Shown here: positions 55,337-64,000 of the stretch, piece after piece
Numbering within the stretch: the first letter of the stretch is position 1
Layout: every line of letters begins with the position of its first letter
NCBI GenBank assembly: GCA_030390025.1
Contig: CM059432.1
Span: 51,276,001-51,340,000 of the forward strand
Direction of reading: 5' to 3'
Source of the DNA: Squalus acanthias
Lineage: Eukaryota
DNA: 64,000 bases
Program-made: the position numbers and the translations under genes
The notes under the pieces: generated by a model
The model's database searches: none
Seen by the model: only the letters and a program-made list of their open reading frames with translations
What the model was told of the DNA's origin: nothing

Positions 55337-55570
55337 AGAGTCATAATGGCACAGAAGGAGGCCATTCAGCCCATCGAGTCTGTGCCGGCTCTCTGTAGAG
55401 CAATCCAGTCAGTCCCATTCCCCTGCTCGATCCCCGTAGCCCTGCATGTTTATTTCCCTCAAGTGCCTATCCAGTCTCCCCTTGAAAACATTGAGTGTCT
55501 CCGCTTCCACCACTTCCATCGGCAGCGAGTTCCAGATCCTCACCACATGCTGCATAAAAAAGTTTTTTTA
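55337..55570 (-). mobile_element. CR1 3' fragment adjoining the provirus
   Basis: GGCACAGAAGGAGGCCATTCAGCCCATCGAGTC and GGCAGCGAGTTCCAG (WNSLP on the minus strand). Confidence 0.7.
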
Positions 55571-55580
55571 CTTGCATTTA

Positions 55581-56509
55581 TGTTGCGGCTTTCACGACCT
55601 CATGACATCCTGTAAGATTTTCAATATTTGCAGATCCCCAAAAACATATATCGAAAGGAAAAAAATAAGGACTTTGGAAATTTAAAGGAAACGTGCCTGG
55701 TCTGGGAATTCAAAGACCAGCAAAACATTACCATTTGGACAATAGGCTCTGGGGAAAAACTGCCCCACCCAAAACACAGAGCCCATAGGAATGCTAGGAC
55801 CAGCAAGGAACCCAAAGCAGGAGAACAATGCAAGCTTCCATGGAACGACAACGCAACAGGATGTAAGCCATTTGATTTGATTTAGCATAGTTGAAAGCCC
55901 ATCAAAATTTCAACAAAGACAATGAACAGGCCTCACCTGAAACTCACTGCATTACGAAACCAGTTTTCGTGTGGAGTTTTTTTTGGGGGGGTGCGAAAAG
56001 GACTATAATTGCAACAGGACCCAAGATTTCTCTCTCTTTTCGACTCGACCGACTACGCTGGAAGCAAGGGTCTCTGGCAGCACTGCCCAGAAGCCACATG
56101 GTAAAGGAAGACGTTCGATGACCAGAATCACCATCGACTTACCTGGCTGGATTTTGGATTGTTAATACCCCTGTCTGGTGAGCATTATCCCTGATCTCCT
56201 GAAACCGAAACCTAGCTAGAAGTGGGATTTTTTGGGAGGGATAAAGGTTTTTATTTTTCTTGTATACTGTCATTTTCTTCGCCTGTAACCGTGTGCTCCC
56301 CAAACCTGTTTAAGTGTGAAGTGTGTTTAAGTTTGTTACCTTTTAACTTTAATAAAAGTTATAGTTCTTTCATTGGAACCTGTGGTCTACTGCATCTTTA
56401 TTCACAACCCCTAAATAAGTCCAAGTTTTGAACCTGGGGCGTGGGAGCGATTCGAACCGCTCACTGAGTCAGGGGAAAGGCTGACTCTTATCACAAAGAC
56501 ACCCCTACA
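55581..56509 (+). repeat. Putative 5' LTR (start uncertain: 55581 or 55611)
   Basis: TGTTGCGG...CCCCTACA imperfect inverted ends, TATAA at 56004, AATAAA at 56351, followed by the PBS. The second LTR is not visible. Confidence 0.65.
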
Positions 56510-56512
56510 AAA

Positions 56513-56530
56513 TGGCGACTGTGGCAAGGA
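56513..56530 (+). promoter_or_regulatory. Primer binding site, tRNA-Ser-like
   Basis: TGGCGACTGTGGCAAGGA, 3 nt after the LTR-terminal CA. TGGCG is complementary to a tRNA ...CGCCA-3' end, as in tRNA-Ser. Confidence 0.65.
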
Positions 56531-56583
56531 CTTGGCAAAAGGGTTGTGAAGCAGTAGACACTGATTCAGAAGAGAGAACTGTA

Positions 56584-58334
56584 ATGGAAGAGAGGATTTC
56601 AGATTATGTATTCAGCAAAGTGAATATGGAAAAGAAGTGGGTCACTAATTTATTAAAAACTGGGCACCCGGTAGATGCAGCAGCTAAATGGACAGAAGGG
56701 AAGGATCATAAAAAATCCTTAGAAAATGCAGTCTGGCTGATGTGCTTCAAGAAACAGATCCAACTTTTGGACAGACTCGTTGAAGCACAGGCAGCCGAGA
56801 TTCGGGAGTCGGCCCTGGAAGTCCAAACAAAGGCCCTAGCAGGGGAGAAGTTACTGTTAGCATTGCAGGCGCTAAACCAGGAAAGGGTGCAGTTAGTGGG
56901 GGAACACAAGACCCGACAGGATTACTTACAGTGCCAGGTCACTGAGGCCAAGAACAATGAGCTGAGGTTGCGGGAAAAGAATGCCCGCCTGGCAAAACAA
57001 GTAAGAGAGCAGGAGGAGACAGTAAAAGGCTTACAGGCAGCCTATAAGGTAATGAGCGCACAGGGGTTTGAGGATGCGGACCACAGCCCCTGCCAGAAGC
57101 AGATAGAGAGTCTCAGCCTTGCTCTAAGGAAGGCAAGAGGCGTGGTGTGCCTCATAAGCCCAAGTGCAGCCCAGGTCGACTTTACAGGGAACCTGGGGAG
57201 AACGGTTCAGACACCAAAGATAGCGCCAAGGGACGACCCGGTTGAGGAGCGGGAGGGCCCACGACCACCACCCATAGCGCCAAGCTTTAGCACAGTCTGG
57301 CAAGAAGAAGGGGTGGAGTTAGAGGCAGAAGCAGAGGTGGAAAAAACCCCGCAAGAGAGGCTGGGACCGGGGCCGATGTGCCCGGCCCGGCAGGACAGAT
57401 TTGGCCCACCCGCTGATAACGGGGATGCGGGACCCCTCCAAAGCCAGTTCGTGGCTCCCCACGGTACACAACAGCTTAGGGTTATGGTAAGCTACCTGAG
57501 TAAACTCACCCAACAAGGGGACCCCTCAGTTCACTTCATAGAAATAGAACAGGCAGCAAGCATTAACGGCTGTGACGATGCCGAGATGGCAAAAATGCTC
57601 CTGTTCTCACTGGACAGCCGGTTATATCAGTCTCTCTCTGCTGAGAGCAAGAGAGGACAGAATGGGTATGCGGCCATCACTGAGGAAGTTTTAGAGGCAA
57701 TGGGGATGAATGAGGGAAGTCCTTTCTCCTGGGTGGAGAAAACAGTGCAGCTAGCAGGAGAGACCCCACAGGCTTTTGCAGACAGGCTGTGGCCCGTGTA
57801 CAGGGGTGCTTGTGGTGGGGATCTTGACAGGGCTCACCTAAACCGGGACGAGCTGGCCCACTGGCTCCGTAGCCTAGTGGCAAACAGCTTGCCTCGGATC
57901 AAAACCCAGGCTGAGCTTTGGTTTGACCGAAAGACCCCTGGGGCACCGAAGAGGCAGTGGTCAGACAGCTGAACCTGGCCTACCGGAACGGGAGAGGGGC
58001 GGAAGAGCCCCCACAAAAAGGGAAAGTACATGAAATAAAACCCGGCCAGAGTAGGAATGAGTGGCATCAGGAGGGGAATAACCCTTCCAGCACAAAGCTT
58101 AACTGTTATGGGTGTGGGAAGGATGGTCACTGGAGGAAGGAGTGTAAGAATCCTTGGAAGGATAACAAGGGAAAGAATTCCTCAGCCCCAGCCCAAAAGA
58201 CAGAGACAGGGATCCCTCCCGCCACGGTCGAGTCATTTTTGGACGCCATGAGGTCCCTATTGACCGGCCCAGGGAAGGTAGCAGCAACCACCGGTGCCCT
58301 GATCCCATCAGCCCCAACTAACCTAAAATCCTGA
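56584..58334 (+). CDS. gag: Gag (N-terminal coiled coil, capsid-like region, CCHC knuckle), with one -1 frameshift near 57928
   Basis: ORFs 56512-57972 and 57957-58334 join as WFD(P)KDPWGTEEAVVRQL when one base is added. Knuckle CYGCGKDGHWRKEC. Confidence 0.8.
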
Positions 58335-61300
58335 CTGGAGCCAGCGCAGCCTGTTTACCTGTGTTCCCTTACCTACGACTTGTGGAAGAGACCCCTCGTG
58401 GAGATGGAGGTCGAAGATGTGAAGGGGACCTATCTGTTGGACACGGGAGCATCATGCACTGTGATCCATTCGGCTAACCCCACCACCTCAACTCTATCTA
58501 ACGGGGTCCCCCACAGTCTGTCGGGATTCACAGGTAAAGAACAGGCAGGCTCATTTTCCATCCCGCTGTCCATTCGCTTGGGAACACTCCGCTCTAAGTG
58601 GACCTGTGTCCTAATGAAGTGGGAGGTGGAGGGTGGAAAAGGGATCCTGGGAGCCGACTTTATTGTAGGCCACGGGATCCTAGTGGATTTACGGAATCAC
58701 TGCCTCTGGGGGGCAAATACAGGAAAGGAAGGCGGAGTAGTAGTCATCCCAGGGAAACAGGGGAAGGGGACCCTTTGCACCATGAAGCCTAAAGAGGGTT
58801 ACAACCTCGAGCTCATGGTCAGTAACACCCCAAAGGAGTTTCAAGCATTTGTGCGAGCCCACCTAGATACATTTGCTACACACAAGCATGACTGTGGGAG
58901 AGTCAACGGGTTTGAGGTCAGCGTAGACGGGGACCCCATGGCCCAACCACAGAAACAGTATAACTTCCCCAGGGAAGCAGAGCCAGACCTGGAAGTAGCC
59001 ATGTCCTCCTTAGTACAGCAGGGGGTCCTGAGGCCAATAGCCACCCACGTGAACTCTCCACTGTGGCCGGTTAGAAAACCGGACAACTCCTGGAGGGCCA
59101 CAGTGGACTATCGGGTGCTCAACAGTAACATCCCAGCCTGTGCACCCACGGTAGCAGCAGTTGCCGACCTGATAGGAAGTATCCCAGCATCCGCGACCAC
59201 TTTCACAGTGCTGGATATCTCCAACGGGTTTTGGTCCATTCCCCTAAGGAGAGAGGATCAGTACAAGTTTGCCTTTACCTTCAAAGGGCAACAGTACACG
59301 TGGAACTGTTTGCCTCAGGGCTTCCACAATAGCCCCAGCATTTTCCACCAATGCATGGCAAACAGTTTAAAGGGCTTCAGCCAGCCCAGGCAGCTGGTAC
59401 AATATGTGGATGACCTGCTCCTATTCACCGATTTGCGAGAGGAGCATGGCCCACTTCTAGCCGAGCTGCTGGAACTGCTCAGGCAGGAAGGTTTTAAAGT
59501 CAACCCAAAGAAAGCGCAGATCGGCCAGCAGGAGGTGAAATTCCTGGGCCTGACAATACGCGCTGGGGAAAGGGCCATGGATAAAGCTAGGAGGGAAGCA
59601 GTACAGGAGTTACCAGTCCCCAACACAGTCACGGGAGTAAGATCATTCCTGGGGCTAACCGGTTACTGCAGAGACTTCATTGAGGACTATGCAGCCACAG
59701 CAGCCCCTCTGCTCCGACACCTACACAAGGGAGTGGAGTGGGTTTGGGAAGAGGGCTGCCAGGCAGCATTTGTCAGGTTCAAGAAAGATCTGCAGACTGC
59801 ACCAGCTCTAGGGGCCATAGAGGGGGGAAAAGAGTTCTTCCTGGAGGTAGCAGCCAGCGGGGACAGCCTGAGTGCTGTGCTGCTCCAAGAGCGGCATGGC
59901 AAGTTGAGACCGGTGGTCTACTCCTCCAGGATACTCACAGATGTGGAGAGGAGCTACTCCAATTGTGAAAGGCACCTCTTGGCCACACATTGGGCTGTGA
60001 AAAGATCGTTGATCTTCACAGGCACCTCTCCCATCACCCTCCTTACCCATCACACGCCCACCCAAATGCTCTTGGATGGGAGAATCAAGGATGGGACAGT
60101 GAGCAGTGCCCGCATTGCTCGCTGGACCCTGCTTCTCTCACAGATGGACTTGAAAGTAAAAGGGCTCTGCGAGCCGCAGCTCGCAGCTAACCTGATATAT
60201 CCTGGAACAGCCCACCGGTGTTCCATAGAAGGGGTTTGGGAAGTAGACATAGGTTTACGGGCCGGGATACACCCCACAGGCCGTGAAATCTATGTGGATG
60301 GCTCCAGCACGGTATCTGCTGGCGAGCGACTTACAGGGTGTGGAGTTTATGACCCAGCAGCAGACCTTGCCCTGGCAATCAAGCTCCCCAGCACCATGAG
60401 CGCCCAGCAGGCTGAACTGTCCGCAGTAGTGTACGTGGTTACACACCCCGAGATCTTCCCCACCCTATACACGATTTGCTCGGACAGCATGTTCACATGC
60501 AATTCGTGTACGGAGTACCTGGCCATCTGGTCCCGCCGCGGATACACCTCCGCTGACGGGAGACCCCTCACAGTAAAACCCCTGCTGGAGAGAATCTTAG
60601 CTGCAGTGGGGGAGGAAGGGGAGATTTTCATCCATAAGGTGAAAGCCCATTCCTCCACAGAACCCCGTAGTGAGGGCAACCGGCAGGCAGACGTGCTGGC
60701 TAAAGAGGGTGCCCGCACAGGCACTTTCTGGGACCCATATGGAGCCAGTCCCATAGCAGCAGTCAGGGGTAGAAATGGGACACAAGGGAATGCAAGGGTA
60801 GCTTTAACCCCGGACCTTAAGACGGTTCAAACCCAAGACCCCGTCCTCAAGGCAGTCCTCAGGGCAGTGGCCGAAGGGAAAAGGATAGAGGGCCCTTATA
60901 GCACAGCAGCCCTCTCCGTAAAGGAAGGCATGCTGTTTAAGGGAGAGCAATGGGTAGTACCGCAGCAGCACCGAAGGGGAATTCCTCCAACTGGCCCATG
61001 AGGGTCCGGGAGCGGGGCATCCCGGGCCTGAGACCACCTGGCAGCGGGTGGAACAGGCAGGATGGTGGCCAGGACTAAGGGAAGATGTCCGCGAGTTCTG
61101 TGCCAGCTGTCTGGTGTGTGCTGCTAACAACCCTGACCCCCACAAAAGAAAGGTACCCATGGGACACATCAGGAGGGTAGAGGGACCATGGCAGTCGATC
61201 CAAGTCGACTACATCGGGCCCCTACCCACCACGCAGGGAGGCTATAAGTACTGCCTAGTCCTGGTGGATGTGTTTACAAAGTGGGTAGAAGCCTTCCCCT

Positions 61301-62598
61301 GCAGAACAGCCACAGCCCTTAGTACAGCCAGGGTCCTGGTCAGGGAGGTGTTCTCACGATGGGGGCTACCACAGTACGTGGAGTCCGACCAAAGGAGCCA
61401 CTTTACCGGGCAGGTCATGCGGAATACCCTCATGGTACTCGGCATAGAGGGGAAATGGCACATTACACACAATCCACAGTCCTCAGGGATTGTAGAGAGG
61501 ATGAATAGGACCTTGAAAGAAAGGCTGAGGAAAGAGACGGTGGACTCACCTAGAAAGTGGGCAGAGGTCCTACCATTGGTCCTAATGGGGATCCGAGCCA
61601 GCCAGTCAAAAAGCACGGGGTATTCCCCACACGAGCTGATGACTGGCAGAGTTATGCGGACCCCCACCCATGTACTAGCCCCGGTGCTCACAGAAGGTCA
61701 GCTCAGGGAGGTGAACCGGGACAAGTTCGCCGGGAACCTCTTCGAGAACCTTAAAAGGGTCCATGAGCAGGCGGCAGGGAACATGGGAAGGCAGCATCGG
61801 AGTAACCGATTGCTGTTAGAACCCCAGAAACGTCACGAGTGGGAAATAGGGGATCAGGTGATGGTGAGGAATTTTGCTCGGGTAGGCAGTCTAGAACCAT
61901 TATACATGGGGCCCTACAGCATTGTAGATAAGGCAAGCCCCATGGTATACGCCATAAAATTGCCTCGGCGCACCAAATGGTTCCACATAAACCAATGTAA
62001 ATTGTTTAAATCCGAGAGAAGGGGACAGCCAGTTGAGCCAAGGTCTGAGGATAGAAATCTCCAGCCTGCAGCCAGCGAGATTTCACAGAATGCACAAGCA
62101 GGGGCGGTGGCCTGTCTTAGGGGAGGGGCCACCCCACCCACTGTTTGGGACATTCCCCCAATCCTCTGGGATTTAGAGGAGGAGGAGCCCGAACCAGATA
62201 GCCCCGCCTCCGAACCAGGTGTTGAACCAGCACCAGGCTGCGAAGAGTCACCTGACCCTGAAACAGGTTTAGGAGAGGTACAGCCTGAGGATAGAAATCC
62301 CCAGCCAGTGGCAGTGGAAGATTCACAGACCACACAACAGGGGGCAGTGGCTCGTGTTAAAGACCCACCAGCCAGAAAACCCCCACCAGCCAGAGCCCCT
62401 AGAAGATCCCCACGTACGCCACAGCCAAAGAAACCGTGGTCACCGGCTCCCCAATTTAAAAGGGCCGCCCCTCAAGCCAGGGGCCGATCTGAGGACAGAG
62501 GTTCCCGGCCAGCAGCCATAGGCTGCAAGGGACCAAAGGTACAGGACAGGGCGGCCACACCAAAGGGAGTAGGGTGCTGCAGTCCTGACAGGAGTTAG
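58335..62598 (+). CDS. pol: Pol: protease, RT, degenerate RNase H (tether), RNase H, integrase; one frameshift at the GGGG at about 60976-60979
   Basis: LLDTGAS; LPQGF and YVDD; IYVDGS...AQQAEL...SDS...KVKAH...GNRQAD; H-H-C-C; DYIGP...SDQ...VERMNRTLK; GPY motif. Confidence 0.9.
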
Positions 62599-62811
62599 GC
62601 TAGCCGTCCGGAGACGGGCGGCGAATGTACATAGCTTTTGTTTATTAAATTTTGAGATTGTTAAGTTTGGGTGTTTTTAGTTACATTTTAAGTAAGGTGG
62701 TTGGTAGTTTTAAAATGTTATAATTTCAAGAGTGTTTTGTATTGAGTCGAGGTCGCAAGACCCGACTATGCTTCACCCAAGCCAGAGAATCTACTCGGGA
62801 CCTGGCTATAT

Positions 62812-62831
62812 GCTCTTGTGTCTCCTTACAG
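62812..62831 (+). promoter_or_regulatory. Putative env splice acceptor
   Basis: GCTCTTGTGTCTCCTTACAG, ending 15 nt upstream of the env ATG at 62846. Confidence 0.6.
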
Positions 62832-62845
62832 AAGGGATTGTCGAT

Positions 62846-64000
62846 ATGAAGGGGGGCATACTCCTACTCGCTCTGATAGGAATGAGCGCTGGGAGGCGAG
62901 GTGACGTGGAGGACTCCCACATCTATGGGTGCTCAGGAGTGAGAGCACCAGTCGTCACCGCAGGGGGTGGCGAGCGGGGAGTGGAGGAGCTCGCCATCTA
63001 CTTCCACGAGGGAAGGTGGCCAGGGTGGCTGGGGTCCAACTCTACTAAATACTCCAACCAGCCCGGGTTCACGTACGGGGAGGCCTCCCTCCCATGCCCC
63101 AGAATACAGGTCATTGCCACAAGGGTCAGTGTCACCGAGGGGAAGCGTGTGTGCCTTACCTGTAAGGGACGAATTCCCCTAAATAGGTGGTGGTGGCTCA
63201 GGAAGCTGAGCAGGGATGCAGGGGACCATACAGCCGACTGGGAAAGATTAGGGAACGACACCCACCGGACAATCACAGGGACCCAAGGAGGAGTCAGTGT
63301 TTGTTGGGATAAGTGGTGGGAGTCGGAACAGGGAGTCTATGTTTGTATGTGGGGATCAGAGGAAGCCTGCCCCACAGGGGTATCCATCATCTTCTCCAGC
63401 CAATGGCAGGATGCCGGGGAGGGGATAGGGTGGGATTCTAGCCTGCATGGGTGCGTGGTCCCACACATTCCGGTCCCAGTTAATGCCACTGAACTCGTGG
63501 GACACACCCGAAAGCCCCTACCCACGACCCAGGTACCGAAAACCCTGGAAGAAAAGTGCCCTACCACCACCAAGGGACCAGGGAATGGGTTAGTCCTAGT
63601 ACCAACCGAAAAGGTACTATACCAGGGGGTACACTATGCAGTAGCTTCAGTAATATTAAACCTCACCGAGGTATACTTACCTGAGTGGTGTCCTAAGGAG
63701 ACGGAGCAACTGTACCAGGCCCTGCTAAAGGAAATGTTTAGGAAATTTTACGAATTTGATTTTGCCAATATAGACAAAGTAGAGCTATACAGAATACACC
63801 TATGGGCACGGGTAGACAAAGAAGGGAAGCCTGGAATGATGTCTTCACTGCCTATAGTACAGGGTCCTCTGTAATAAATAGCCTGGATGACATGGAATTA
63901 CAGACACAGATAAATGGTTTAAAAACCCAGTTAAGAAAGATCCTGAAGGATGGGAACACAGTGGTAGGCTCAGAGCTACATGAGGACCAAGCTATGACGG
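62846..64000 (+). CDS. env: Envelope glycoprotein (partial): signal peptide, Ig-like domain, F2-like segment, furin site, fusion peptide and heptad repeat; -1 frameshift at about 63760-63800
   Basis: MKGGILLLALIGMSAG; N-glycosylation sequons NST, NDT, NAT and NLT. The shifted frame reads GRQRR/EAWNDVFTAYSTGSSVINSLDDMELQTQINGLKTQLRKILKD. Confidence 0.8.

Follow-up and report, generated by a model that had tools for sequence, protein, structure and literature searches.

Probable F2/F1 junction of an F-type env gene in a dead endogenous retrovirus of a cartilaginous fish

The stretch of Squalus acanthias DNA that we analysed (64,000 nt, hereafter the window) breaks off within env of a gag-pol-env provirus whose 3' LTR lies beyond the window. 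The explanation that we favour, with good confidence, is that this end carries the F2/F1 junction of an F-type env in a cartilaginous-fish endogenous retrovirus (ERV) with a reverse transcriptase (RT) from the SnRV side, and that the copy is dead. The assignment of Env to the F-type class I fusogens, which an earlier note made from the letters alone had preferred to a gamma-type SU/TM protein, is supported mainly by the modelled fold of a relative. All features are collected in Table 1.

Table 1. Features of the provirus in the window
Feature	Position	Strand	Basis
Probable 5' LTR, with AATAAA at 56351-56356	55914..56434	+	Sequence; related-copy contigs join or start near 55914; inference
Splice donor CTG/GTGAGC for env RNA, 5' of the primer-site-like motif	56175..56183	+	One contig, run X16; context
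Primer-binding-site-like motif TGG...ATTCGAACC, like the reverse complement of a tRNA 3' end	56435..56458	+	Sequence
gag, broken: stop in the main frame at 57972, zinc-knuckle tail in another frame at 57927-58334	56512..58334	+	ORFs; zf-CCHC E 5e-4
pol: protease, RT, tether, RNase H, integrase; broken near 60,977 by a change of frame	58335..62598	+	Pfam; P0025 switches frame there
Polypyrimidine tract and splice acceptor AG, just 5' of the env ATG	62812..62831	+	Sequence; spliced contig
env start (ATG 62846) with signal-peptide-like stretch MKGGILLLALIGMSAG	62846..62893	+	By eye
Probable Ig-like domain, C...W...Y-x-C spacing	63098..63346	+	Pfam Ig_3 E 0.0012, 19.8 bits, under the 30-bit cut-off
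Pro/Thr-rich linker	63464..63580	+	Translation
F2-like segment: two strands, conserved Cys, long helix (GLVLVPTEK 63587-63613, YAVASVILNL 63635-63664, WCPKE 63686-63700)	63587..63790	+	Conserved in relatives; matches P0011 ~195-256
Frame break: short deletion, length not a multiple of three (MGTG follows at 63802-63813)	63790..63802	+	tblastn frame switch; 2 bridging contigs with gaps
Furin-type cleavage motif RQRR	63814..63825	+	Sequence; motif in relatives
Fusion-peptide position, amphipathic, N-D and N-x-L-D conserved (EAWNDVF 63826-63846)	63826..63888	+	Alignment; hydropathy
Start of heptad repeat 1 (HR1) (LQTQING 63898-63918, LRKIL 63931-63945)	63898..64000	+	P0001 and P0002 share 72-76% of residues; P0011 model helical here, pLDDT <50

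The env gene is split between two reading frames in this copy. In the ORF list, frame +2 runs from 62714 to a stop at 63874, while frame +1 has no stop between 63760 and the end of the window (80 aa), confirming the earlier observation that a second frame continues past the end of the ORF. Results of tblastn showed that five of six Env relatives (P0001, P0002, P0004, P0005 and P0006) match frame +2 and then frame +1, with the switch at ~63,790-63,814; the sixth, P0011, matches frame +2 only. P0002 spans the break as one continuous protein, with 60% identity over 309 residues on the upstream side and 72% on the downstream side; the downstream piece finds two relatives, from a sawshark (P0001, 76%) and a skate (P0002, 72%). 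Since the frame switch is seen against five relatives that use a single frame, the furin site, the fusion-peptide position and the helix belong to the same Env. Two contigs from related copies span the break with gaps, one of them with only 2 other differences over 441 nt; the break site was absent among the indels listed in the contig comparison, which covered 4 of the 22 listed runs.

Judged from the sequence, the frame change is a short deletion in this copy and reflects the ordinary decay of a provirus, and because gag and pol are each broken besides env, the copy is dead. The deletion, which falls before the furin site, would lead to the stop at 63874, so that the product would be cut short and lack both fusion subunit and anchor. 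The earlier note had presented the site as hidden behind a frameshift; the frameshift stood, but what lies behind it is hidden by a deletion in a defective copy and not by regulation. Programmed ribosomal -1 frameshifting would instead give a secreted N-terminal product next to a full-length fusogen, comparable to the sGP/GP editing of filoviruses, and it has in its favour that the two frames overlap by ~110 nt (63760-63874). We nonetheless hold it to be extremely improbable, given the single-frame junction of the five relatives, the gaps with which the close copies bridge the site and the breaks in gag and pol of the same copy.

In the reconstructed protein, a basic cleavage site is followed directly by the fusion peptide and HR1, which is the arrangement of an F-type protein. 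The RQRR motif sits exactly where it had been read before, and R-x-K/R-R stands at the same place in 10 relatives (P0001, P0002, P0004-P0006, P0009-P0012 and P0021). When the bases of the 240-nt piece were shuffled 20,000 times, 81 shuffles were open, 2,409 contained R-x-K/R-R and 11 did both; with a motif in 2,409 of 20,000 shuffles, a furin motif by itself is weak evidence, and the case is made by homology. The strand-Cys-helix layout of F2 that the earlier note had recognised upstream of the site was borne out, as it is conserved in the relatives and P0011 aligns from residue 207 onward to F2 of hPIV3, RSV and Nipah.

The fusion peptide had also been described as unusually polar, and the window is indeed the lowest in mean hydropathy over the 20 residues after the cleavage motif (0.10 versus 0.23-0.84 in 8 relatives, leaving aside P0011, P0016 and P0022, where the cut was misplaced, and P0001, where it was not found). 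However, the family peptide is itself amphipathic and more polar than that of Loki-Xtr. In the relatives it starts with G or D (R in one), continues with two apolar residues and usually has N-D, and none of them shares the E-A-W start. The polar character is therefore divided: partly a family trait, partly peculiar to this copy. Baculovirus F and errantivirus proteins likewise have an amphipathic fusion peptide after the furin site. Concerning the heptad pattern, the HR1 region is helical in the P0011 model (pLDDT <50), in agreement with the first reading, but the pattern is modest, with 41% hydrophobic a/d positions over 58 residues in the best register of a crude count.

We also looked at the fold through relatives. 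P0001 finds 23 proteins at E ≤ 0.001, itself included, and 11 of the 12 that were looked up come from sharks or a skate. P0011, a natural relative of full length (739 aa), shares 24% identity with the upstream piece of the window. Given that P0011 exists, a search with the upstream ORF that returned no relative above 677 aa among 3,375 candidates was insensitive. The model of P0011 is weak (pLDDT 53, pTM 0.40). Foldseek against the PDB, the comparison with RSV and hMPV F that the earlier note had proposed, nevertheless placed RSV, hMPV and paramyxovirus F at the top, from E 1.3e-4 onward, with 40 matches at E ≤ 0.001 and foamy virus Env at rank 49; TM-scores were 0.1-0.3 and rmsd >20. With VIA-align, which re-aligned only Foldseek's own matches and mainly over residues 208-450, P0011 residues 207-450 aligned to hPIV3 F 40-285 (1ztm; Z 7.5, rmsd 4.6, 134 aligned), RSV F 49-306 (Z 7.4) and foamy Env (8rm0; Z 6.8, rmsd 3.5, 122 aligned), no Z reaching 8. 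Within this range lie those parts of Env that the window itself encodes (F2, cleavage site and HR1). The F2/DIII core of the weak P0011 model thus superposes on F, nearly all listed Foldseek and VIA rows being F proteins and one a foamy Env.

In agreement with these matches, 26 BFVD entries were found with the P0011 model at E ≤ 0.001, nearly all of them viral fusion or envelope glycoproteins. The best was the Env of walleye dermal sarcoma virus (WDSV; A4GTG3, E 2.8e-10); a fish filovirus glycoprotein, mumps F and lispivirus F came next, with the Env of WEHV-1 (Q9WHI8, E 1.4e-6) in sixth place. For the closer relative P0024, the ESM Atlas gave Baculo_F (0.94, 203 shared features) and Fusion_gly (0.93, 197 shared features), at a recognition value of 1641 that is below the 2300 mark. 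Cysteine-rich beta domains, HR2 and a membrane anchor are present in F1 of P0011 and P0024, with ~400 residues between the furin site and the anchor; the window ends before them. Sequence searches gave no such signal: Pfam had no Fusion_gly (PF00523), Baculo_F or TLV_coat match in any Env piece or relative, a PDB sequence search with P0001 returned nothing significant, and a profile search reached an F protein only at E 7.4. As a separate observation, the presence of the WDSV Env, the WEHV-1 Env and the glycoprotein of Wenling thamnaconus septentrionalis virus (a fish filovirus) among the top six BFVD matches suggests, on the level of models, that these proteins may have F-like folds, a description not commonly given to them.

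The same material bears on a divergent gamma-type SU/TM protein, in which the CLTC at 63152-63163, a CXXC that recurs in P0002 and P0005, would be the SU motif. Such a protein would not be out of place, as gamma-type receptor-binding domains are Ig-like (accessible part of bioRxiv 2024.03.17.585361) and gamma-type Env occurs in cartilaginous fish according to the available sections of the anamniote Env survey. The gamma-type signature is ISD plus CX6CC (PMC9967133, in the part available), and neither element is present in any of the 26 sequences, including the 6 that extend to the membrane anchor. Moreover, the stretch of ~400 residues with beta domains from furin site to anchor in P0011 and P0024, the missing TLV_coat match and the position of the second Cys of CLTC inside the Ig_3 match all speak against it, and we judge a gamma-type Env to be very improbable.

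Returning to the F-type Env, ~240 residues precede F2, and this N-terminal module is probably Ig-like. In addition to the Pfam match of Table 1, the ESM Atlas placed Ig clusters at 0.90, behind unnamed clusters, and the UniRef name of the relative P0011 is 'Ig-like domain-containing'. The model of the upstream piece (pLDDT 34) gave VIA and Foldseek matches without an Ig or F fold, and is too poor to count either way. The Ig-like domain may serve in attachment. The start of the gene is backed by one contig of run X16 that joins 56176 to 62831 with GT..AG ends and 21 letters on the short side, the acceptor being 14 bases 5' of the env ATG and both splice contexts being good; as the labelling of runs X1 and X16 as RNA is a guess, this contig speaks for the env start and not for expression.

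In an intact member of the family, env would most likely be expressed from a spliced RNA as one type I membrane protein, in the order signal peptide, probable Ig-like attachment domain, Pro/Thr linker, F2, furin site, fusion peptide, HR1, cysteine-rich beta domains, HR2 and transmembrane anchor. Beyond this layout, the steps below are modelled on what is known of class I F proteins. After synthesis in the secretory pathway, furin would cut at R-x-R-R and free the fusion peptide at the new N-terminus, attachment would probably be made by the N-terminal module, and the fusion peptide would insert before HR1 and HR2 refold to a six-helix bundle as in paramyxovirus and pneumovirus F.

The motif behind the probable 5' LTR, which we take to be primer-binding-site-like from the usual pattern of tRNA 3' ends, had no tRNA match by ARAGORN or Rfam; it runs (56435-56463) through a whole T-arm-like hairpin that seems 1 base short of the usual tRNA spacing. 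Just 5' of the LTR, a very high contig depth at 55500-55790 points to a separate abundant repeat. The gag tail (57927-58334) ends with TGA in frame with pol, as read at the junction; the TGA is directly followed by CTG (58332-58337), a context that favours read-through. In pol, Pfam matched RVT_1 (3e-35), RT_RNaseH (4e-19), RNase_H (7e-20) and rve (2e-15), so that a tether and an RNase H make up a dual RNase H. The integrase frame (62030-62598) continues for ~190 further acidic, Pro-rich residues in which an 'EDRN-QP-A' stretch is repeated twice, with no family match.

The exact RT clade is one that we infer, and the RT sequence points to the SnRV group (class III, clade Huo), well ahead of Loki. 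Three RT motifs of the window were found exactly, and only, in SnRV rows (3/3 each) in 300 of the 318 pages of the Wang and Han alignments (PMC7947760), and the Loki row motifs PLSRWPM and CPFGY-NSPAEF are absent from the window RT. Counted by hand over 138 positions, ~71 residues are identical to SnRV (~51%) and ~43 to Loki-Str. The nearest database RT is 86% identical and the next nearest ~50-52%, the named ones among the latter being from frogs and a coelacanth. An RT tree of 48 rows (the window and 47 of 96 database matches, with no SnRV, Loki or foamy reference among them) grouped the window with retroviruses against gypsy rows at 100/100 and was unresolved inside the retrovirus clade; an IMG/VR search returned no RT locus. 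The in-frame gag-TGA-pol and an env donor 5' of the primer site match class III XtERV-S, for which the accessible part of PMC8278194 gives the same layout and donor position, together with a gamma-type Env. According to the same text, a donor in this position is typical of spumaviruses and XtERV-S and not of orthoretroviruses. SnRV-like ERVs are already known from the elephant shark, as CmiERV lineage I (PMC4422223) and clade Huo (PMC6001957) in the available sections of these papers; this clade shares with our element the RT motifs, the hand-counted RT identity and the presence in cartilaginous fish. An SnRV Env was absent among the 50 BFVD matches listed for the P0011 model, and the accessible parts of PMC4422223, PMC6001957 and PMC12193657 do not describe it as F-like.

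An F-type Env thus appears to sit on a snakehead-retrovirus-like backbone. F-type retroviral Env as such is already known, from lokiretroviruses, foamy viruses and errantiviruses. Lokiretroviruses are published retroviruses with an Env similar to F of the Mononegavirales (Wang and Han 2021, PMC7947760, in the part available), and they share with the element gag-pol-env, the dual RNase H and an Env with signal peptide, basic cleavage site, fusion peptide, coiled coil, anchor and F similarity, a similarity drawn there from sequence matches and here from the fold of a relative. If the element were an ordinary lokiretrovirus, an F-type Env would be no surprise, and the novelty would be limited to the host, a cartilaginous fish, and to the N-terminal module; that text gives both a dual RNase H and an F-like Env with an RXKR-type site for Loki. 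Dual RNase H, however, is not diagnostic of Loki, because it is common to all retroviruses. The RT motifs described above, an N-terminal extension of ~240 residues that holds a probable Ig-like domain, the polar amphipathic fusion peptide and the missing PF00523 match set our element apart, the published Loki-Xtr Env having no long N-terminal module and an apolar fusion peptide in the sections available. Relatives of our Env come from sharks and skates, which the accessible part of PMC7947760 does not report as Loki hosts, and five shark or chimaera genomes seen in its Table S2 carry no asterisk, which we read as Loki-negative. An ordinary lokiretrovirus is on this evidence unlikely.

The SnRV-side element with an F-type Env can also be set against other carriers of the fold, which the available text of Viro3D surveys across viruses (PMC12583693). 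Paramyxovirus and pneumovirus F (PF00523; 1ztm, 3rki, 7lze) have in common with our Env the F2 strand-Cys-helix, the furin site, an N-terminal fusion peptide, HR1 and the Cys-rich beta domains; sequence identity is ~10%, and the protein described here is provirus-encoded. Those viruses use a separate attachment protein, whereas here the protein's own N-terminal module would probably take that place.

Foamy viruses have a Gag without a Cys-His box, while the Gag found here has a zinc knuckle (E 5e-4) and pol follows in frame behind the gag TGA, so that the element does not fall among the foamy viruses. Foamy pol has its own start in another frame (PMC8278194, part available). Foamy Env is nevertheless a retroviral Env with an F-like core, as given in the accessible sections of Fernandez et al. 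2024 (PMC11468914), and 8rm0 is among the matches of the P0011 model (Z 6.8). The aligned range is spanned by residues 163-710 of foamy Env, which implies a large insertion, whereas the extra module of our family is N-terminal.

Walleye epsilonretrovirus Env provides the best and the sixth BFVD matches of the P0011 model, but these proteins are longer (1,159-1,317 aa versus ~740-800), the TM-scores are 0.12-0.16 and the RT belongs to another clade. In the part of PMC9967133 available, epsilon Env is distinct, untyped and without gamma-type hallmarks, and its SU could not be modelled in a 2021 preprint. Errantivirus and baculovirus F resemble our Env in that Baculo_F was the top ESM Atlas cluster for P0024 (0.94). 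An F-type Env of errantiviruses is described in the accessible text of bioRxiv 10.1101/2023.10.26.564294; errantiviruses are Ty3/gypsy elements of invertebrates, while the RT here groups with retroviruses against gypsy at 100/100.

The differences from the F-type Env elements already in print are the SnRV-like RT, the probable Ig-like domain before F2 and a walleye epsilonretrovirus Env as the best viral fold match. We found no description in the literature of an F-type Env in SnRV-clade ERVs, shark ERVs or WDSV and walleye retroviruses, some figures and supplements lying outside the search, and the accessible parts of PMC9040795, PMC12193657, PMC13709493, PMC10435555 and bioRxiv 2024.03.17.585361 hold nothing on it for these lineages. 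The anamniote Env survey, in its available part, screened gamma and beta types only, and env screens that rely on ISD/CX6CC or Pfam miss Envs of the present class altogether.

More tentatively, and as a view that we find rather doubtful for now, F-type Env may extend beyond foamy viruses and Loki to the SnRV-like family of sharks and skates, with its Ig-like domain before F2, and to the walleye epsilonretroviruses, with F ancestral and the gamma- and beta-type SU/TM proteins later. For the origin of retroviral Env, Wang and Han (PMC7947760, in the sections available) set out four scenarios and exclude none. An F Env on an SnRV backbone, together with the walleye fold match, would put the F fold in three or four deep branches of retroviruses, and the scenarios would become testable by comparing RT and Env trees. 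If true, F would be the more likely original fusogen of retroviruses, the gamma- and beta-type SU/TM proteins having taken its place later, and sharks would contribute a family whose Env is self-contained, with an Ig-like attachment domain fused before F2.

Finally, two of the relatives are irregular. The skate protein P0002 keeps the anchor but lacks, between HR1 and HR2, the greater part of its F1 core, which may be a gene-model artefact or an internally deleted env. The sawshark protein P0006, annotated as 'Niban 1-like', consists of this Env in its first ~250 residues, which probably reflects a chimeric gene model or the exonisation of part of an ERV.
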